A stretch of 32,000 bases of DNA from Longivirga aurantiaca (GCF_042660085.1 NZ_JBHSTI010000008.1:1809876-1841875), one strand, 5' to 3'; numbered from the stretch's first letter, positions 23,696 through 30,895 are shown. Translations and numbers: made by a program. Notes: generated from the sequence alone by a model not told the origin.

Positions 23696-25027
23696 TCAGC
23701 CCCGGCCGGGCCTCGGCGCGGTGGGCTGGATCCCGCCGAATCCCCCGTGATCGTCCGGCTCCTCGGGGCCGGGCACGAGGCGGGCAGGGCGCACCGACCC
23801 CCGCCCGAACCGGGCCTCGGCCCGGTCGACGGCCTGCTCGGCCTCGCGCCAGCCGAGCTCGGGCTCGTCGAAGAGCATCTGGCGCGTGGCATCGGCCGCC
23901 TCGACGAGCCCCTCGACCTTCACCCCGACCAGGCGCAGCCGGGCCCGCTGCAGGCCCAGCGCGTCGTAGAGGTCGCGAGCCGTGGAGTAGACCTCGCGGC
24001 CGACATCGGTGTGCGAGCGCAGGGTTCGCGACCGGGTGATGGTGGAGAAGTCGGCGAAGCGCACCTTGATCGACACCGTCCGGCCGGCGACCCCGGCCCT
24101 GCGCAGCCGCGAGGCCACCTTCTCCGACAGGCGCAGGAGCTCGCGGTGGATCACCTCGGGGTCGTCGACGTCGCGCGGGAAGGTCTCCTCGTTGCTGATG
24201 CTCTTCTCGCCCTCGGGCACCTCGACGCCGCGCGGGTCGCGGCCCCAGGCGAGCGCCGCGAGGTGCTGCCCCGCGGCCGGCCCGAGGGCGCGGACGAGGG
24301 TGTCGACCGGCGTGTGGGCGATGTCGCCGACGGTGCGGAGCCCGAGCCTCGTCAGCTGCTCCTCCGTCTTCTCCCCCACGCCCCAGAGCGCGCCGACAGG
24401 GAGGGGGTGCAGGAAGGCCACGACGCGGTCGGCGGGCACCACGAGCAGGCCGTCGGGCTTGGCCTGGGTGGAGGCGAGCTTGGCGACGAACTTGGTCGAG
24501 GCGACGCCGACGGTGCAGGTGATGCCCTGCTCGTCGTGCACCCGCGCCCGGATCTGCTCGGCGATGACCGCGGGCGGCCCGAGCCGTCGGATGCTCCCGG
24601 AGACGTCGAGGAACGCCTCGTCGAGCGAGAGCGGCTCGACGAGCGGCGTGATGTCGCGGAACACCGCCATCACGCCGGCCGACACCGCGGTGTAGAGCTC
24701 GAAGTCCGGCGGCAGCACGACGAGCTGCGGGCAGAGCCGCTTGGCGCGCGACATCGGCATGGCTGAGTGGACGCCGTACTTCCGGGCCTCGTACGTGGCG
24801 GCGGTGACGACGCCGCGCGAGCCCTCGCCGCCGACGATGACGGGCTTGCCGCGCAGCTCGGGGCGGCTGCGCAGCTCGCAGGACGCGTAGAAGGCGTCCA
24901 TGTCGACGTGCAGGATCGGGCAGCCGTCGTCCTCGCGCCGGCCGTCGTGGGCGACACGGGAGTCGCCGCTGGCCGAGACGTCGGCCTGGGTGATGCGCGC
25001 GCCCCGGGTGATCTGGCTGCGGCTCAC
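23696..25027 (-). CDS. dinB: DNA polymerase IV (Y-family), catalytic motifs intact (443 aa)
   Basis: The GTG at 25027 is preceded by GGAGG with an 8-nt spacer. The product contains ILHVDMDAFYASCE, SLDEAFLDV, VGVASTKFVAKLAS and GVGEKT. The start choice gives an N-terminal extension of about 36 aa and is uncertain. Confidence 0.9.
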   Translation of the reverse strand: MSRSQITRGARITQADVSASGDSRVAHDGRREDDGCPILHVDMDAFYASCELRSRPELRGKPVIVGGEGSRGVVTAATYEARKYGVHSAMPMSRAKRLCPQLVVLPPDFELYTAVSAGVMAVFRDITPLVEPLSLDEAFLDVSGSIRRLGPPAVIAEQIRARVHDEQGITCTVGVASTKFVAKLASTQAKPDGLLVVPADRVVAFLHPLPVGALWGVGEKTEEQLTRLGLRTVGDIAHTPVDTLVRALGPAAGQHLAALAWGRDPRGVEVPEGEKSISNEETFPRDVDDPEVIHRELLRLSEKVASRLRRAGVAGRTVSIKVRFADFSTITRSRTLRSHTDVGREVYSTARDLYDALGLQRARLRLVGVKVEGLVEAADATRQMLFDEPELGWREAEQAVDRAEARFGRGSVRPARLVPGPEEPDDHGGFGGIQPTAPRPGRG

Positions 25028-25065
25028 CGCCCCTGCCTCCGGCTCTGCTCGTGCTGCACGGGCCC

Positions 25066-25087
25066 ATCATGCGCCCTCGCACCGACC
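25066..25087 (-). promoter_or_regulatory. RecA-NDp-like motif upstream of dinB (GGTCGGTG-N8-CATGAT)
   Basis: The minus strand reads GGTCGGTG cgagggcg CATGAT. Compared with the published tTGTCRgtg-N8-TAnnnT, it matches 7/8 in the upstream box and has the correct spacing. The -10 keeps A2 and T6 but has C1. Confidence 0.3.
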
Positions 25088-25097
25088 ATGCCGCGGC

Positions 25098-25149
25098 GCC
25101 TCACGCTGTGCTGCCTCACGCTGTGCTGCCTCACGCTGTGCTGCCTCAC
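25098..25149. repeat. Perfect 15-bp tandem repeat x3.5 (plus strand TCACGCTGTGCTGCC; minus strand GGCAGCACAGCGTGA)
   Basis: I read this directly from the sequence. Full units lie at 25101-25115, 25116-25130 and 25131-25145, with partial units at both ends. The dnaE2 stop codon (25146-25148) is the first triplet of the partial fourth unit. Confidence 0.95.
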
Positions 25150-28100
25150 CATCCCGAGCTGCCCGGGCTCGAGTGCCACAGCTTGCTCGGGGCCTCCTTC
25201 TTCTCCTTCGCCCGCTCCTTCTCCGTGCCCGCCTGGCCGCGGGTGTCGGCGGCGTCGACGCCCTGGGGCTTGATGTCGGCGTACGGCGACTGCCGGAACC
25301 CGCTGGCGTGCACGAGCACGCGGCGCACGCGCTCGTCGCCCGAGAGCTCCGACCCGCGCTGGCCCATGCCGCCGGCGGCCGGTCCGGCGCCACCCGACGA
25401 CGCTGCCGCGCCGAGCCCGCCCGGACCGCCGTACTGCGCGCCCTGGGCGGCGGCCGGCACCACCGCGACCGGCCGGGTCGACCGGCTGCCCGCACGCCCG
25501 GCGACCGCGGCCTCGTCGGAGTCGTCGCGGGTGCCGCCGTCGTCGAGGATCGCGGCCACCGCGGGGAGGCCGCCCGCCCGCCAGGCGTCGTGCACGACGC
25601 CGAGCTCCCAGGCGCCGGTGGCGCGCAGCGAGATGCCGCGCGGGCCGGTGCGCCGGATCACCCCGCGTACGAGCAGCAGCCACGACCCGAACACCGTGGC
25701 CGCGTAGGGGCCCTGGGCGTCCTCGAAGAAGGTGGCGTCGACCGGGCCGGTGGAGTCGTCGAGGGTGAGGAACACGACGCGCCGGCCCGAGCGCACCGGC
25801 GGGGTCTGGGTGGCCACCTTCACCCCGGCCACGAGCACCTCGGACTGGCTGCGGCGCCCGAGCAGGTCGCGCGAGCGCGCGACGCCGAGGGCATCGAGCA
25901 TCGGGGCGTAGAAGTCCACGAGGTGCCGGCTGGCGTCGAGGCCGAGCACCTCGAGCTCGGCGCGCACCCGCTCGGCGTCGGTCATCTCGGGCAGGCCGCT
26001 CGCGGCCACCTCCCCCGGCGCGTCGCCGAGGTCGAGGGCGAGCTGCACGTCGAGGTCGGCGGCGGTGGTCGCGGCGGCCGGGCCCTGGGCCTGGCGCCGG
26101 GCGGCGCGCACGGTGTCGCGGTCGGCGTCCACGGTGACGCCGAGCGGGATGCCGGTGGGCCCGAGCGGGAGGTCGCGCCGCTTGCCCGCCGACCGGGGGG
26201 CGGCGGCCTTGGCCGCGCGCGTGGTGGCCCGGGTGTGCCGGTCGAGGTCGGCCACCTGCAGCAGGAGGTCGCGTCGGGTCACCCGGCCGCGGCGGCGCAC
26301 CGGGCTCGACAGGCCGATGCCGTAGAGGGAGTCGAACCCGCCCGCGACCACGAGCCGCTCGACCACCGGGCGGGAGACCCGGGCGCGGGTCCAGAAGTCC
26401 GACAGCGAGCCGTACGGCCGGCCCGCCACGATCCGCTCGACCTCGGCGTCGGTGATGCCCTTGACGTCGGCGAGCGAGAGCCGGATGCCGTACGCCGACC
26501 CGTCGGGCAGGCCGGGCACATCGGGGCCGCGGCGCGGGCGCTCGTCGAGGATCTCCGGCGGCGGCTCGTCGTACGGCGAGACCTTCTCGACGGAGTAGGT
26601 GCCCACCGACGCGTTGACGTCGAGGCTGAGCACCGCGATGCCGAGGTTGCGCGCGTCGTCGAGGATCAGCCGCTTCGGGTACATGCCCGGGTCGTGGGTG
26701 AGCACGCCGGCGAGGAACGCCGCCGGGTGGTGGGCCTTCAGCCACGCCGAGTGGTACGTCGGCAGCGCGAACGCGGCGGCGTGCGCCTTGCAGAAGCCGA
26801 ACGACGCGAACGCCTTGAGGACGTCCCAGACCTTCTCGATCGTCGCGAGCTCGTAGCCCTCGGCGCGGGAGGCGGGGTAGAACCACGCGCGGACGTCCTG
26901 CTGCCCCTCGGGCGAGCCCATGCTGCGGCGCACCTCGTCGGCCTCGGCGAGCGAGCAGCCCGTCATCACCGCGACGAGACGCAGCACCTGCTCGTGGAAG
27001 ACCACGACGCCGTAGGTCTCCTCGAGGGCAGGGCGGAGCGCGGGGTGCAGGTAGACGGGGTCGTTCCAGCCCTGCCGCGCGCGCAGGAACGGCGTGACCA
27101 TGTCGGACTTCACCGGCCCCGGGCGGAACAGCGAGATGTCGGTGATGAGGTCGCCGAAGGTCTCGGGCGCGAACTTGCCGACGAGCTCGCGCTGGCCGGG
27201 CGACTCGATCTGGAAGCAGCCGAGGGTGTGCGCGGACTTGATGAGCGCGAACGTCGCCTCGTCGTCGTGCGGCACGGCGTCGAGGTCGACCGTCTCGCCG
27301 TCGACGCGCTCGATCTCGGTGAGGGCGTAGGCCATCGACGACTGCATACGGATACCGAGGACGTCGAGCTTGAGCAGGCCGAGCTCCTCGACGTCGTCCT
27401 TGTCGAACTGGCTCATGGGGAAGCCCATCCAGCTGGCCTCGACCGGGGTGCGGTCGAGCAGCGTGGCGTCCGAGAGCAGCACGCCGCACGGGTGCAGGGC
27501 GATGTGCCGCGGCAGGCCGTCGAGCGCCTCGACGAGGGTGAGGAACCCGTCGAGCTCGCCGCGGGCGGCGAGGCGCCCGAGGCCCGAGGCCCGCAGCTCG
27601 GGCAGCTCCTGCAGCGCGTTGCGCGCATCGCGCGCGCGGATGTGCGGGAACGCGGTGGCGAACGCGTCGATCTCGCCGGGCGGCATCCCGAGGGCGGCGC
27701 CGACGTCGCGGACGGCGTGCCGCACGCGGTAGGTGTCGCGCATCGACACGCAGGCGCACCGCTCGCCGCCGAAGCGCTCGAGGATCCGCTCGTACACCTC
27801 GGTGCGGCGGGCGGACTCGACGTCGACGTCGATGTCGGGCAGCGCGCGGCGCAACGGCGAGAGGAACCGCTCCATGAGCAGGCCGTGGGCGAGCGGGTCG
27901 ACGCCGGAGATGCCGAGCAGGTGGTTGACGAGGCTGCCCGCGCCCGACCCGCGCGCGGTGACGCGGACGTCCATGCCCTTGATGAGGTCGACGACCTCGC
28001 CGACGGTGAGGAAGTAGCCCGCGAACCCGAGCACCCCGATCGTCTCGAGCTCGGCGTCGAGCCGCTCGCGCGCCTGCCGCGCGCGGTCGGCGCGGGTGCG

Positions 28101-29399
28101 GCGGGTGCGCGGGAGGTAGTCGGTGAGCGCGGCCTCGCACCGGGCTCGCAGGTGCCGGTCGGCCTCGAGCGCCTCGGCCGCGAGCGCCGTCGGGCCGCGG
28201 TCGCGGACGGCGCTGCTGCTGCCTGCCGTGCGCGCGGGCAGCAGGAGGTCGAGCTCGGGCACGTGCACCTCGCCGATCCCGAGGTCGGCGACGGGGTCGA
28301 GCCGGCAGGCCTCGGCGAGGGTGCGGGTGTCGGCGAGCAGGCGGTCGACCTCGCGCTGCTCGCTGCTGCCCGAGGCCGTGCCCGACATCCGCACCACCTC
28401 GCGGGCCACCTGCTCCATCCGCAGGCCGTCGGCGAGGTGCCCCTCGCCGTTGGCGCGGTCGAGGTGGCGGGAGTCGAGCGGCACGAGTCGGCGGATGGCG
28501 TCGAGGACGTCGACCACCGGCGCCTGGTCGCGCTCGGCGTGCCGCACGGCGTTGGTGAGCACCGCGGGCAGGTCGTGCTCGCGGGCGAAGGCGAGCATCC
28601 GGGCGGCGAACGCCGAGGAGTAGGGCAGACCGCGGGTGCGGGCGCCGGACAGGTCGGTGGTCGCCGTCGCGGAGTCGCGGGCGCGGTGGCTCACCACCTC
28701 GATCGCGAGCCGTCGCCCGAACGCCGCGCGCCACGGGGCGAGGGCGGTGAGGGCGAGGTCGGGACGTCGTCGCGCGAGCGCCCGGCCGACCTCGGACTCC
28801 GGGCCGAGCAGCACGACGAGGCCGTCGCTGTGCCGGGCGACGACCTCGGGCGTGGTGACGGGCGCACCGCGCACCGCCTGCTCCCCCGGCAGGGCGTCCG
28901 AGCCGAGGCCGAGGTGCGCGGCGGACACGAGCCGGCACAGCGACGCCCAGCCGGTGCGTCCGCGTGCGAGCAGCACGACCCGCGGGTGCCGCGGGTCGAC
29001 CTCGGCACCGCCGCGCGCGGGGGTGCGGCGCGCGGGCTGGGCCCGTGTGCTGCTCGTGCGCTCGGCGAGGGTCGGGCCGGCGCCGAGCCGGCCGGCCGCG
29101 GTGCGCTGCACCCGGGACCCGAGCCCGGCACGCCCGGTGCCGCCGGTGACCGAGCCGAGCGTCGGAACCTCGAGACCAGCGCGGACCGCGAGGTCGAGGC
29201 CGAGGATCGGGGCGATCCCGGCGTCGCGGCAGGCGAGGACGAACCGCACCGCGCCGTACAGGCCGTCGCGGTCGGTGAGGGCGAGGGAGTCCTGCCCGAG
29301 GTCGGCCGCCCGCGCCACGAGCGCAGCCGGGCTGCTCGCGCCGTGGCGCAGGGAGTAGCCCGAGGCGACGTGGAGGTGGACGAAGGGGTCGTCGGCCAC
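25146..29399 (-). CDS. dnaE2: Error-prone DNA polymerase, DnaE2/ImuC type (C-family alpha subunit), unusually long (1417 aa)
   Basis: This is the C-terminal part of ORF 25146..29702, from the GTG at 29399 (VADDPFVHLHVASGYSLRHGAS). Palm motifs are LPDIDVDVES, KLDVLGIRMQS and LGCFQIESPGQREL. It also carries KSFGFCKAHAAAFA-like, OB-fold (VLVAGVKVATQTPPVRSGRRVVFLTLDDSTG) and tail (ASGFRQSPYADIKP ... KLWHSSPGSSGW) segments that I recall as DnaE2-specific. Confidence 0.88.
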   Translation of the reverse strand: MADDPFVHLHVASGYSLRHGASSPAALVARAADLGQDSLALTDRDGLYGAVRFVLACRDAGIAPILGLDLAVRAGLEVPTLGSVTGGTGRAGLGSRVQRTAAGRLGAGPTLAERTSSTRAQPARRTPARGGAEVDPRHPRVVLLARGRTGWASLCRLVSAAHLGLGSDALPGEQAVRGAPVTTPEVVARHSDGLVVLLGPESEVGRALARRRPDLALTALAPWRAAFGRRLAIEVVSHRARDSATATTDLSGARTRGLPYSSAFAARMLAFAREHDLPAVLTNAVRHAERDQAPVVDVLDAIRRLVPLDSRHLDRANGEGHLADGLRMEQVAREVVRMSGTASGSSEQREVDRLLADTRTLAEACRLDPVADLGIGEVHVPELDLLLPARTAGSSSAVRDRGPTALAAEALEADRHLRARCEAALTDYLPRTRRTRADRARQARERLDAELETIGVLGFAGYFLTVGEVVDLIKGMDVRVTARGSGAGSLVNHLLGISGVDPLAHGLLMERFLSPLRRALPDIDVDVESARRTEVYERILERFGGERCACVSMRDTYRVRHAVRDVGAALGMPPGEIDAFATAFPHIRARDARNALQELPELRASGLGRLAARGELDGFLTLVEALDGLPRHIALHPCGVLLSDATLLDRTPVEASWMGFPMSQFDKDDVEELGLLKLDVLGIRMQSSMAYALTEIERVDGETVDLDAVPHDDEATFALIKSAHTLGCFQIESPGQRELVGKFAPETFGDLITDISLFRPGPVKSDMVTPFLRARQGWNDPVYLHPALRPALEETYGVVVFHEQVLRLVAVMTGCSLAEADEVRRSMGSPEGQQDVRAWFYPASRAEGYELATIEKVWDVLKAFASFGFCKAHAAAFALPTYHSAWLKAHHPAAFLAGVLTHDPGMYPKRLILDDARNLGIAVLSLDVNASVGTYSVEKVSPYDEPPPEILDERPRRGPDVPGLPDGSAYGIRLSLADVKGITDAEVERIVAGRPYGSLSDFWTRARVSRPVVERLVVAGGFDSLYGIGLSSPVRRRGRVTRRDLLLQVADLDRHTRATTRAAKAAAPRSAGKRRDLPLGPTGIPLGVTVDADRDTVRAARRQAQGPAAATTAADLDVQLALDLGDAPGEVAASGLPEMTDAERVRAELEVLGLDASRHLVDFYAPMLDALGVARSRDLLGRRSQSEVLVAGVKVATQTPPVRSGRRVVFLTLDDSTGPVDATFFEDAQGPYAATVFGSWLLLVRGVIRRTGPRGISLRATGAWELGVVHDAWRAGGLPAVAAILDDGGTRDDSDEAAVAGRAGSRSTRPVAVVPAAAQGAQYGGPGGLGAAASSGGAGPAAGGMGQRGSELSGDERVRRVLVHASGFRQSPYADIKPQGVDAADTRGQAGTEKERAKEKKEAPSKLWHSSPGSSGW

Positions 29400-29403
29400 G
29401 GCC

Positions 29404-30090
29404 TTACGACACTGCTGCGGAGGGACCGCCGAGCAGCGGCTGGTGCGGCACGCCGAGCAGCCGGGCGACCCGGGCGAGGAAGGCCTCGGCGTCGCGGACG
29501 AGGTCGTCGGCCTCGCGCTCGCTGACGACGCCGCGCAGCCCTGCCTCGGCCGCGGCGCGCTTGCCCGCGCCGGCCGCGAAGAACTGCGCCCACTCGCCGA
29601 GCTCGGGGGCCACCTCGGCGAGCAGCACCCAGGCGCTGCGCAGCCGGGCCGAGCGCTTGCCGCGCGGACGGGCCCGGGCCGCGAGCACCGCGGCGGCGGC
29701 ACGCAGCGCCGAGAGATGGGCGCGGGCGTAGCGCAGCCCGGTGTCGTCGGTGGAGCCGGCGGCGAGCAGCTCGCGCGCGGCCCCGGCGAGCAGGTCGCGG
29801 CTCGCGGCCGGGACCGAGGGCACCGGGGTGGCGGGCAGCGCGTCGGGCGGCACCGGGGTGAGCCCGACCTCGAGGTCGGGCCGGGGCCGGGTCTCGGCGG
29901 TGGCGGTCATGGCGGCTCCTCCCGGGGTCGGTGCGTCAGAGGCGGGTGCGGGGACGTCGGCGGGCTCGGGCAGCAGCGGCTCGGTGAGGACGAGCTGCAG
30001 CCCCCGGACGGGCGGGCGGAGGCGGACCGGGCGGCCCGGTGCCGGGCTGCGTCGGCCATGAACGCCGCTGCGGGTGCGGGTGCTGGACAT
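29404..30090 (-). CDS. SAV_6107-type HEPN-like domain protein with a Pro-rich N-terminal region (228 aa; alternative start at 29910 gives 168 aa)
   Basis: The ATG at 30090 is preceded by GGAGG (5-nt spacer), 12 nt after the upstream stop. The C-terminal helical domain is LRYARAHLSALRAAAAVLAARARP...SAWVLLAEVAPELGEWAQFFAAGAGKRAAAEAGLRGVVSEREADDLVRDAEAFLARV, which matches my memory of the actinobacterial SAV_6107 HEPN family. Its TAA stop lies 4 nt before the dnaE2 GTG. Confidence 0.6.
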   Translation of the reverse strand: MSSTRTRSGVHGRRSPAPGRPVRLRPPVRGLQLVLTEPLLPEPADVPAPASDAPTPGGAAMTATAETRPRPDLEVGLTPVPPDALPATPVPSVPAASRDLLAGAARELLAAGSTDDTGLRYARAHLSALRAAAAVLAARARPRGKRSARLRSAWVLLAEVAPELGEWAQFFAAGAGKRAAAEAGLRGVVSEREADDLVRDAEAFLARVARLLGVPHQPLLGGPSAAVS

Positions 30091-30102
30091 CGGGACCTCC
30101 GA

Positions 30103-30552
30103 TCAGTCGAGGGTGCGCGCGAGGCGCCACCGGGTGGGGACGGGCGGGCGGACCGTGGGGTCGTCGAGCAGGGCGGCCGCGGCGGCGGGGACGTCGCGCA
30201 CGAGGTCGTACACGCCGACCGAGGACGAGCGGCCCGCCCGTGCCTCGACCCGCCAGACCTCGCGCTCCACCGCACCGACGTCGAAGGCGACCGAGCGCCG
30301 CGGGGCCTCCCGGGCCTCCGCCGCCTCGGGGTCCTCGGGTGCCTGCGACCCGGCCGTCGCACCGACGGCGACGGGACGGCGACGGCGGGAGCCGGAGCCG
30401 ACCCACCACGTGCCGAGCTCGATCCAGTGGGCGAGCACCGCGCGGACGACGTAGAGCCGGCCGCGCCACAGGAACTGCGCCGGGGCCACCTCGAGGGTGT
30501 CGAGGCTCACCGGTGCCGTGCGGACCTGCACGGCCTCGCCGTAGCTGCGCAT
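30103..30552 (-). CDS. DUF6504-like small protein (149 aa)
   Basis: The ATG at 30552 is preceded by GGGAGGGAG. The product is MRSYGEAVQVR...PAQFLWRGRLYVVRAVLAHWIELGTWW...EREVWRVEARAG...GVYDLVRD...RWRLARTLD, which matches my recollection of the DUF6504 pattern. The frame stays open upstream to 30744, but there codon third positions become less G/C-biased. Confidence 0.6.
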   Translation of the reverse strand: MRSYGEAVQVRTAPVSLDTLEVAPAQFLWRGRLYVVRAVLAHWIELGTWWVGSGSRRRRPVAVGATAGSQAPEDPEAAEAREAPRRSVAFDVGAVEREVWRVEARAGRSSSVGVYDLVRDVPAAAAALLDDPTVRPPVPTRWRLARTLD

Positions 30553-30705
30553 GACGGTCTCCCTCCCCGGCTCGTGGCCGGGTGCTCGTCCGGCGCGCGC
30601 CCGGACGGGCGGCGCGACCGGCCGGGGGAAGGCGACCGGCGGGCACCCGGCCCCGCCCGTCGGACCCGGCGCTTCCCCACGCCGAGGCCCGACTGCGGGA
30701 CCGAC

Positions 30706-30745
30706 GGTGGGCCCGTGGGGACCGCGAGCTCCCCACGGGCCCACC
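30706..30745. repeat. Perfect 16-bp inverted repeat (GGTGGGCCCGTGGGGA-ccgcgagc-TCCCCACGGGCCCACC) in the leader of the DUF6504-like gene
   Basis: I read this directly from the sequence, with arms at 30706-30721 and 30730-30745. It lies between the LexA box and the DUF6504-like start codon. Confidence 0.85.
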
Positions 30746-30839
30746 GCGCCCCGCCCGCGGCAGCCGCGAATCCGCCGCGTGCGAGAGCTGGTGGTGCCCG
30801 TCGCCCGAACCGGTGGCCCGACCCTCCCGCGAGAGAGGA

Positions 30840-30855
30840 TCGAACACCTGTTCGA
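30840..30855. promoter_or_regulatory. LexA (SOS) box, a perfect match to the actinobacterial consensus TCGAAC-N4-GTTCGA
   Basis: The sequence TCGAACACCTGTTCGA is a perfect palindrome. It lies 9 nt downstream of the minus-strand -10 hexamer, so it covers the predicted TSS of the DUF6504-like/HEPN-like/dnaE2 operon. Confidence 0.8.
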
Positions 30856-30864
30856 ACACGACCT

Positions 30865-30895
30865 ACCGTAGCCCCCACCCCCGACAGCGCGTCAA
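30865..30895 (-). promoter_or_regulatory. Damage-inducible promoter: TTGACG ... TGTCGGGG-N8-TACGGT (RecA-NDp/PafBC-type motif plus -10)
   Basis: The minus strand reads TTGACGCGCTGTCGGGGGTGGGGGCTACGGT. TGTCGGGG (30879-30886), an 8-nt spacer and TACGGT (30865-30870) fit tTGTCRgtg-N8-TAnnnT. A TTGACG hexamer (30890-30895) lies 19 nt upstream of the -10. Confidence 0.45.

Follow-up and report, generated by a model that had tools for sequence, protein, structure and literature searches.

The Longivirga aurantiaca locus described here would encode a DNA-damage-inducible operon for the actinobacterial DnaE2 mutasome variant that is free of ImuA and ImuB, 'DnaE2B-PolY-ImuB-C-RecA', a reading to which we assign a probability of roughly 0.7. 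DnaE2-dependent mutagenesis drives drug-resistance mutations in actinobacteria. If read correctly, the locus displays a common natural form of one ImuA/ImuB-free DnaE2 variant, including a conserved gene of the HEPN_SAV_6107 family that is omitted from current models.

Organization and conservation of the locus

Within the window (the whole stretch of DNA analysed, 32 kb), four co-directional genes on the minus strand follow one promoter region, as an earlier reading made from the sequence only had noted. Pfam and NCBIfam profile matches identify them as imuB-C (DUF6504; 30552..30103; 149 aa; PF20114, E 3e-18, Pfam), a HEPN_SAV_6107 gene (30090..29404; 228 aa; PF18726, E 4e-34, Pfam), a dnaE2 gene of the DnaE2B group (29399..25146; 1417 aa; PHP, pol3_alpha, finger, HHH and OB domains) and a dinB-type PolY (Pol IV) gene (25027..23696; 443 aa; NF003015, 415 bits with a cut-off of 367). 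The first three genes are closely packed, with 12 nt (tcGGAGGtcccg) between the TGA of imuB-C and the ATG of the HEPN gene and 4 nt (ggcc) between the TAA of the latter and the GTG of dnaE2, and dinB comes only after a 118-nt spacer. These junctions had been described correctly before. The spacer contains a 15-nt tandem repeat (3.5 copies, 25098-25149, TRF score 104, 100% matches), which runs from the dnaE2 stop codon and bears an in-frame TGA in each unit; it is present in one relative (L001) and absent in three others (L007, L102 and L112).

The two small genes had been expected to be co-conserved with dnaE2, and this is what we found. In loci centred on DUF6504, the next gene encodes HEPN in 60/60 cases, followed by dnaE2 in 36/36 and dinB in 13/13, counting at each step the related loci with enough sequence. 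The gene order is kept across Sporichthyales, Nanopelagicales, Frankiales, Propionibacteriales and other MAGs. No imuA'/imuB-like ORF was found in the 32-kb window, and the earlier description of the cassette as a damage-regulated DnaE2 without ImuA'/ImuB is supported. The idea itself is not new, as it was anticipated by Aravind 2013, Timinskas & Venclovas 2019 and NAR 2026, and the deployment of DnaE2 and Pol IV as one unit is likewise predicted in the literature. The premise that DnaE2 generally requires ImuA and ImuB is valid only within the DnaE2A group; genomes with DnaE2B reportedly have neither imuA nor imuB (NAR 2026, PMC12926913).

Composite promoter and structured leader

The promoter (30865..30895, minus strand) contains TTGACG (30895-30890), cTGTCGggg (30887-30879), an 8-nt spacer and a -10 element TACGGT (30870-30865). 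A sigma-70 and terminator scan gave no match, and the promoter was recognized from the alignment of close relatives, among which its elements are invariant. The stretch cTGTCGggg-8nt-TACGGT at 30887-30865 matches the PafBC/RecA-NDp promoter consensus, tTGTCRgtg-8nt-TAnnnT (PMC5656591), and the core of the PafBC motif is TGTCGG (PMC8682763). The LexA (SOS) box TCGAACAGGTGTTCGA (30855..30840) lies 9 nt past the -10, where transcription is predicted to start (near 30856-30858); its perfect match had been noted before and is the only one within the 32-kb window. A LexA box with at most one mismatch is found upstream of DUF6504 in 17/17 genome loci having DUF6504, and likewise in the metagenome loci with sufficient upstream sequence. 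Of 94 distinct box-upstream sequences, 66 contain TGTCR-N11-TAnnnT-N8-10-LexA box, with a spacing of 11 every time, as against 58/50000 random positions. Judged by these motifs, the operon promoter is a predicted composite of a RecA-NDp/PafBC-like element, a -10 and then a LexA box, conserved across orders. Such a composite PafBC-like/LexA promoter has seemingly not been reported before and is absent from the NAR 2026 description. Mycobacterial mutasome genes are under joint LexA and PafBC control (PMC8682763), and the promoter described here would extend this dual control to another mutasome type.

The LexA box lies ~288 nt upstream of the first ATG, and the operon therefore has a long leader (~305 nt, 30553..30858, minus strand), which is non-coding and has a strong predicted structure. 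Its minimum free energy is -232 kcal/mol, compared with -187 +/- 5.5 for shuffles (z -8.2). A coding sequence in the leader was considered and ruled out, as GC is flat over the codon positions (0.76/0.81/0.81) with no codon periodicity; indels in the leaders of relatives are not multiples of three. A search of Rfam gave no credible match.

ImuB-C, DnaE2B and PolY

[quoted passage not shown] It matches Tessaracoccus ImuB-C VEP41449 (BLASTP E 4e-13), and the DUF6504 family profile matches the 80-aa ImuB-C of Deinococcus grandis (E 2.4e-10). By direct profile search against single full-length ImuB sequences the link from DUF6504 is weak, and the standalone ImuB-C proteins serve as intermediates. 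In addition, Pfam DUF6504 matches Agrobacterium ImuB residues 427-481 at E 0.013, and hhalign with ImuB C-termini gives P 3e-4 for a shallow ImuB C-terminal profile, as the protein search gave only near-identical Rhizobiaceae ImuBs. The AF2 model of ImuB-C is all-beta (pLDDT 76). Neither Foldseek nor a profile search of PDB sequences found a PDB match for DUF6504, in agreement with the published statement that ImuB-C has a novel fold. When 1.84 billion representatives were searched for DUF6504, the best 150 matches listed were short proteins only.

The polymerase is assigned to the DnaE2B group by pairwise matches and profile cut-offs. Its N-terminal 520 aa share 44% identity (E 2e-101) with Tessaracoccus DnaE2B and 42% with Streptomyces alboniger DnaE2B, and DnaE2A gives patchy matches only. 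The protein does not reach the cut-off of either NCBIfam model, DnaE1 or error-prone. The palm is intact, with PDIDVD at residue 521 and LDVLG at 678, and the C-terminal tail KLWHSSPGSSGW is conserved.

The only Y-family gene of the window encodes an apparently active PolY, since the catalytic acidic residues are present; the motifs DMDAFYAS (residues 42-49) and SLDEAF (134-139) are kept, as had been pointed out. PolY shows 54% identity (E 3e-140) to Tessaracoccus PolY VEP41451, in an alignment that reaches through the C-terminal tail, and its N-terminus, MSRSQITRG, is conserved in relatives. A clamp-type motif, QMLF, is located at residues 383-386 (nt 23870-23881), followed by a putative RecA-N-terminus-like tail at residues 394-417 (nt 23777-23848). 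The tail sequence REAEQAVDRAEARFGRGSVRPARL aligns with the tail of the published Tessaracoccus PolY; its best alignment to RecA, on RecA residues 8-41, is weak and not significant alone (BLAST E 0.17).

Given that DUF6504 appears to be a standalone ImuB-C, ImuB would be present here as two proteins, ImuB-C and an active PolY, and would not have given way to unrelated factors. The earlier interpretation is partly supported.

HEPN_SAV_6107, a probable damage-response protein and possible mutasome partner

The HEPN protein starts at M61 in the NCBI annotation (168 aa). The 228-aa long form is backed by a ribosome-binding site, by N-terminal conservation in five homologues and by the small distance between DUF6504 and HEPN in most relatives; codon-position GC over residues 1-60 is only weakly coding-like. 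A disordered N-terminal arm (residues 1-94) precedes a four-helix HEPN-like domain (residues 95-212, nt 29455-29808; AF2 pLDDT above 90), whose top Foldseek matches are HEPN proteins (2hsb, prob 1.00; 1wol; sacsin HEPN). There are 44 invariant columns over 23 homologues, including R120-x4-H125 and K177/R178, and identity across orders is 60-80%. The Rx4-6H motif was not found at the end of helix 3, where the sequence reads K177-R178-AAAEAGL with no His 4-6 residues past the Arg, and the protein may use an alternative site with the invariant H125. The SAV_6107 family is filed as HEPN-M and listed without Rx4-6H, and no gene context was reported for it in 2013 (PMC3710099). In the sub-lineage of the window, the arm carries the peptide QLVL(T/L/V)E, which is similar to the first part of a beta-clamp-binding motif. 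As this peptide is confined to one sub-lineage and the arm is variable elsewhere (11-100 aa), the clamp-binding motif is only a lead.

The HEPN gene seems to be an overlooked member of the DnaE2B operon; the NAR 2026 paper and its supplements never mention HEPN_SAV_6107. The gene is also found with neither dnaE2 nor imuB-C in cis, in 62 Streptomycetaceae loci, in Nonomuraea and, as HEPN-methyltransferase-DinB, in a Frankiaceae MAG, and Marmoricola has DUF6504-HEPN-methyltransferase-DinB without dnaE2 in cis. In the 62 Streptomycetaceae loci the lone HEPN gene is followed by a SAM methyltransferase and then DUF3040, and a PafBC-type promoter, TTGTCAGTG-N8-CACGAT, precedes it in 61/62 (expected 0.04). 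Two SOS-like boxes lie upstream of the lone Nonomuraea gene. Damage signals on lone HEPN genes have seemingly not been reported before, and these damage-type promoters argue for a function in the DNA-damage response. From gene context and promoters we infer that HEPN is a genuine DNA-damage-response protein, an operon member here and equipped with its own PafBC- or SOS-type signals when alone. Its most probable role is that of a binding or regulatory partner, with no canonical HEPN RNase chemistry.

The palm of DnaE polymerases has the Pol-beta fold. The HEPN clade classically pairs with Pol-beta-fold nucleotidyltransferases, so the HEPN protein, which would be co-transcribed with the polymerases, could dock on DnaE2B, and once docked there (or on PolY or the clamp) it could act as a gate between the error-prone polymerases and the fork. 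That HEPN_SAV_6107 is a hitherto unrecognised damage-response protein, widespread in Actinomycetes, and also joins the DnaE2B mutasome as a fifth subunit with a regulatory or adaptor role is a tentative proposal and, taken as a whole, rather unlikely.

HEPN persists without imuB-C or dnaE2 in cis, and it may therefore act independently of the polymerases. It could be a damage-response factor outside the polymerase complex that belongs to an older backbone of HEPN, SAM methyltransferase and DUF3040 near the dcw cluster, with its place in the operon owed only to regulation in common with the polymerase genes. We regard this as a serious possibility at somewhat below even odds. The Streptomycetaceae, Nonomuraea, Frankiaceae and Marmoricola arrangements described above favour it, as do the DnaE2B and ImuB-C pairs of Tessaracoccus and Micrococcales, which are consecutive in accession and so leave no HEPN gene between them. 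Published tetramer models also score well without any HEPN protein (NAR 2026, PMC12926913). However, HEPN follows imuB-C and precedes dnaE2B in all 60 related loci with enough sequence, with gaps mostly of -14 to +20 nt from DUF6504, and here its stop is 4 nt from the dnaE2 start. Moreover, in the published Janibacter, Kineococcus and Ornithinimicrobium systems a gap of one gene separates ImuB-C from DnaE2B; APH01278, ABS04680 and QFG68258 are candidate HEPN_SAV_6107 proteins of these systems. Streptomycetaceae keep DnaE2B elsewhere in the genome, so that HEPN could act there in trans. If HEPN regulates or joins the complex, the published four-protein models are incomplete; if it is independent, it would nonetheless be a new candidate for the PafBC/SOS regulon, open to study in tractable hosts, among them Streptomyces, Kineococcus and Nocardioides.

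A proposed mechanism and its alternatives

In the DnaE2B-PolY-ImuB-C-RecA reading, the PafBC-type element and -10, with the LexA operator at the predicted start, would switch on transcription of the four genes upon damage. According to published AlphaFold models of orthologous systems, the ImuB-C beta-barrel would bind the PHP domain of DnaE2B, and PolY would serve as a scaffold in the role of ImuB, contacting the clamp via QMLF and RecA via its RecA-N-terminus-like tail. Because this tail would tether RecA, RecA is proposed to stand in for ImuA. PolY appears catalytically intact, which makes insertion by PolY and extension by DnaE2B plausible.

DnaE2B and Pol IV might instead be co-expressed and act separately with no mutasome formed, DnaE2B being cryptic or non-mutagenic. 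The S. coelicolor DnaE2B, the only one tested, is induced by UV and MMS, yet UV survival and UV mutagenesis were unchanged when it was deleted, whereas the dinB genes of this species do show phenotypes (PMC3273824). However, the Streptomyces system is without ImuB-C and its PolY is classed as inactivated (NAR 2026), and it is therefore a different sub-type from the system in the window. The imuB-C ... dnaE2B-PolY order is fixed across several orders, and AlphaFold-Multimer gave an ipTM of 0.84 +/- 0.06 for five DnaE2B-PolY-ImuB-C-RecA systems (NAR 2026, PMC12926913). We consider separate action quite improbable.

It is very unlikely that this DnaE2 works with a canonical imuA'-imuB pair encoded in another part of the genome, in a split arrangement like that of M. 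tuberculosis. Our view covers 32 kb of the genome and split cassettes are known in Actinobacteria, but the polymerase is of the DnaE2B type and not DnaE2A, DnaE2B has been reported only from genomes that lack imuA/imuB, and a standalone ImuB-C in cis would make a second ImuB redundant. Hardly credible is a HEPN toxin or defence module (HEPN RNase) present by chance, for which the HEPN fold, the invariant R120-x4-H125 and K177/R178, a proposed alternative histidine in the family of the top fold match and weak PADLOC matches to PDC-M05B (E 8e-4, rejected as a defence reading because they are weak) might speak, but which is at odds with the missing Rx4-6H in a family listed without this motif, with the absence of an adjoining MNT or antitoxin partner (the operon neighbours being imuB-C and dnaE2B), with a fixed chromosomal position and 60-80% identity across orders, unlike mobile defence genes, and with the absence of HEPN and DUF6504 from plasmid DnaE2B cassettes.

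Comparison with known systems

The closest known system is the putative DnaE2B-PolY-ImuB-C-RecA mutasome, which was described computationally (NAR 2026, PMC12926913, after 2013 and 2019 work) with representatives in Tessaracoccus lapidicaptus, Janibacter, Kineococcus, Ornithinimicrobium and Nocardioides. The locus shares with it a DnaE2B-type polymerase, a standalone ImuB-C, an apparently active PolY with a possible RecA-N-terminus-like tail and restriction to Actinobacteria, and there are direct sequence matches to the published proteins. The published system consists of four proteins without HEPN, whereas here a HEPN gene lies between imuB-C and dnaE2B. In Tessaracoccus, ImuB-C, DnaE2B and PolY have consecutive accessions and HEPN is apparently absent.

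The canonical ImuA(')-ImuB-DnaE2 systems of M. tuberculosis, Caulobacter and Pseudomonas are damage-induced, as is predicted for the locus, and have in common with it a LexA box, an ImuB-C module, a C-family polymerase and a Y-family protein, here a presumed scaffold, with clamp-type and (here putative) RecA-type motifs. The mycobacterial one is under dual LexA and PafBC control, to which the composite PafBC-like/LexA promoter corresponds here. Unlike in these systems, there is no ImuA in the window, and no match to a RecA-like family was obtained for either of the two small proteins. The catalytic residues are retained in the Y-family protein, the 149-aa ImuB-C is encoded by a gene of its own, and the polymerase is DnaE2B and not DnaE2A.

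The Deinococcus ImuB-C/ImuY system also has a standalone ImuB-C beside dnaE2, SOS control and no ImuA, but its ImuY is inactive, lexA is in the operon, there is no HEPN, and the polymerase is in the DnaE2X group. The Streptomyces dnaE2-dinB2 operon (Tsai et al. 2012, PMC3273824) shares DnaE2B, a dinB-type gene and an SOS box with the locus, and is induced by UV and MMS. It has no ImuB-C, its PolY is the one that NAR 2026 classes as inactivated, and it lies elsewhere on the chromosome, HEPN being left alone at a dcw-proximal locus with its own PafBC-type promoter. Finally, nucleotidyltransferase-associated HEPN domains (HEPN-M/HEPN-T, PMC3710099) have the four-helix HEPN fold in common with the protein described here, whose neighbours are DNA polymerases rather than an MNT partner.

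Operon layout

Longivirga aurantiaca belongs to the Sporichthyales, and the GC content of the window is ~75%. Entries for this species at NCBI match the DUF6504 protein, and the NCBI-annotated portion of the HEPN protein, with 100% identity. Upstream of the operon are the dcw cluster, a MoxR-DUF58-transglutaminase set, and a DUF3040 gene. The operon contains four genes on the minus strand: a DUF6504 gene (30552..30103, 149 aa), a HEPN_SAV_6107 gene (30090..29404, 228 aa), a DnaE-type polymerase gene (29399..25146, 1417 aa), and a Pol IV (DinB) gene (25027..23696, 443 aa). The sequence-only reading had described the junctions as a 12-nt gap with GGAGG, a TAA, 4 nt and GTG, and a 118-nt spacer; reading the sequence confirmed these, as well as the catalytic motifs it had claimed for DinB. 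Its LexA box, TCGAACAGGTGTTCGA (30855..30840), is the sole perfect match in 32 kb.

The 118-nt spacer between dnaE2 and dinB contains 3.5 copies of a 15-nt unit (GTGAGGCAGCACAGC on the coding strand, 25098-25149). Because the repeats begin at the dnaE2 stop, they give four successive in-frame TGA codons. Among the related loci compared with the window, a similar repeat is found in L001 and is absent from L007, L102, and L112. A 23-nt element, GGGCGCATGATGGGCCCGTGCAG (25054-25076, minus strand), lies ~30 nt 5' of the dinB start; it is kept in L001, L102, and L112, and may serve as an internal promoter or in translation signalling to dinB's ribosomes. The NCBI start of the HEPN gene is M61 (168 aa); an upstream ATG with a GGAGG ribosome-binding site is found 12 nt past the DUF6504 stop (29911-30090). 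At another related locus (L170:7243-7926), an antisense 311-aa ORF was called in place of DUF6504. Small high-GC genes of this type are badly served by gene callers.

DUF6504 protein and polymerases

The sequence-only reading took both small proteins to be of unknown function, which is incorrect for the DUF6504 protein: it is the known ImuB-C module and matches the published Tessaracoccus ImuB-C (E 4e-13). Aravind 2013 places this module in operons that also encode DinB or DnaE2, and Timinskas & Venclovas 2019 in mutasome variants that lack ImuA. Pfam DUF6504 matches the C-terminus of a genuine ImuB from Agrobacterium (E 0.013), profile-profile comparison with ImuB C-termini gives P 3e-4, and a locus on Deinococcus grandis plasmid pDEGR-1 (L083:2027-7371) is a bridge linking DUF6504 to ImuB-C. 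The AF2 model is all-beta with no relative found in the PDB, in agreement with the beta-barrel of novel fold published for ImuB-C (NAR 2026, PMC12926913).

Over its first 520 residues, the C-family polymerase shares 44% identity with Tessaracoccus DnaE2B and 42% with Streptomyces DnaE2B, with only patchy matches to DnaE2A. Both NCBIfam models (DnaE1, error-prone) score below cut-off, and the palm residues are intact. Low-complexity sequence inserted in the PHP region and ahead of the tail accounts for the length of 1417 aa. The C-terminal tail, KLWHSSPGSSGW (25149-25184), is conserved in L001, L007, L102, L112, and L115. DinB is 54% identical to Tessaracoccus PolY end to end, including the tail TRQMLFDEPELGWREAEQAVDRAEARFGRGSVRPARL. 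By BLAST alone, this tail matches RecA weakly, and we call it RecA-like mainly because published work on this PolY group does so.

A DnaE2B-PolY-ImuB-C-RecA system, with AlphaFold-Multimer models and Tessaracoccus proteins in the supplement, has been described from Actinobacteria alone, and from genomes that lack both imuA and imuB (NAR 2026, PMC12926913). The proposed non-canonical mutasome is essentially right, but its class is already in the literature. The sole experimentally studied DnaE2B, from S. coelicolor, is induced by UV and MMS, and deletion of its gene left both UV survival and mutagenesis unchanged (PMC3273824). We count this null phenotype as evidence against a mutagenic role of DnaE2B.

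HEPN gene: published accounts and related loci

Neither the 2026 paper nor its supplements mention HEPN, SAV_6107, or DUF6504 (PMC12926913), and the 2013 HEPN census lists the SAV_6107 family with no gene context (PMC3710099). By the accessions in the 2026 paper, a gap of one gene separates ImuB-C from DnaE2B in Janibacter (APH01277, APH01279), Kineococcus (ABS04681, ABS04679), and Ornithinimicrobium (QFG68257, QFG68259); in Tessaracoccus the accessions are consecutive. We infer that the gap genes are HEPN.

Gene neighbourhoods were compared in 80 metagenome loci collected with the DUF6504 profile and 80 genome loci collected with the HEPN profile. In the metagenome set, HEPN comes next in 60/60 loci with at least 500 nt downstream, dnaE2 follows in 36/36 with enough further sequence, and dinB in 13/13 with enough sequence past dnaE2; DUF3040 then follows on the longest contigs. 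Both small genes are thus co-conserved with dnaE2. Seventeen of the 80 genome loci are DUF6504-HEPN, and each of these has an upstream LexA box. In this set, dnaE2 is missing in Marmoricola and one Propionibacteriales MAG, a Frankiaceae MAG has only box-HEPN-MTase-DinB, and 62 Streptomycetaceae loci have HEPN alone. This retention across varied loci makes HEPN the most persistent gene at the locus.

Many relatives (L003, L004, L014, L023, L033, L044, L051, L061, L078, L122, L150, L162, and L167) have a class-I SAM methyltransferase gene, absent from the window, between dnaE2 and dinB. The gene is also present at L017:10685-11455, and in Streptomycetaceae it comes directly after the lone HEPN gene. 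The order HEPN-MTase-DUF3040 has the look of an older syntenic backbone. In two metagenome loci (L153:1284-1299 and L160:3574-3589), another perfect LexA box is found between HEPN and dnaE2, suggesting that some lineages have an additional internal start under SOS control.

Damage-type signals and HEPN structure

In Streptomycetaceae (L005-L079), ATTGTCAGTG-N8-CACGAT, a putative PafBC/RecA-NDp-like promoter, is found ~60 nt 5' of the lone HEPN ATG in 61/62 loci (0.04 expected). An AT-rich palindrome, TTTTGAACTGACTGGTCAGTGCAAAA, is found farther upstream, together with a degenerate CCGAAC-N4-GATCGA box. The lone HEPN gene of Nonomuraea gerenzanensis is preceded by two SOS-like boxes (L168:8482-8537), with one mismatch each, around TTGACA. 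Downstream, on the opposite strand, is a bldD-like gene; this 11.85-Mb chromosome is recorded as a plasmid. These signals at the lone genes are our strongest evidence for placing the HEPN protein in the DNA-damage response; this evidence does not extend to polymerase binding.

In the AF2 model of the HEPN protein, a disordered arm is followed by a four-helix domain (residues 95-212) predicted with confidence, and the best PDB matches are HEPN proteins. HEPN_SAV_6107 lacks the canonical Rx4-6H motif at the helix-3 end. The protein is very highly conserved: there are 44 invariant columns, including R120, H125, K177, R178, R192, D195, D196, and R199. The invariant R-x4-H (R120-H125, nt 29716-29733) falls within helix 2, not at the canonical site in helix 3, and the invariant K177-R178 (nt 29557-29562) is at the canonical arginine position. 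The family of the top structural match (AF_0298, 2hsb) has been proposed to use an alternative histidine. The disordered arm contains QLVLTE (residues 32-37, nt 29980-29997), a peptide resembling the start of a beta-clamp-binding motif. Related sub-lineages have QLVL(L/V)E, QLLMPT, or QLSLDT in its place, and most other homologues have a short arm of unrelated sequence.

Operon promoter and comparison with known systems

The leader from the LexA box to the first ATG (305 nt, 30553-30858, minus strand) is non-coding, and its fold is far more stable than shuffles (z -8.2). A near-perfect hairpin of ~18 bp around 30707-30744 is absent from the more distant relatives L007 and L034. Alignment of relatives reveals an invariant block, TTGACG-cgc-TGTCGGGGG-tgggggc-TACGGT-9 nt-LexA box. 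This block fits the RecA-NDp/PafBC consensus tTGTCRgtg-8nt-TAnnnT (PMC5656591) and the TGTCGG core (PMC8682763), pointing to putative PafBC/LexA control. The pattern occurs at the exact spacing in 66/94 distinct box-upstream sequences versus 0.1% of random positions.

What remains new is, first, the composite promoter and, second, the overlooked HEPN_SAV_6107 gene with its independent putative damage-type promoters. In mycobacteria, LexA and PafBC are both known to control the imuA'-imuB promoter (PMC8682763), and the same logic appears, with putative regulators, in a different mutasome type here.
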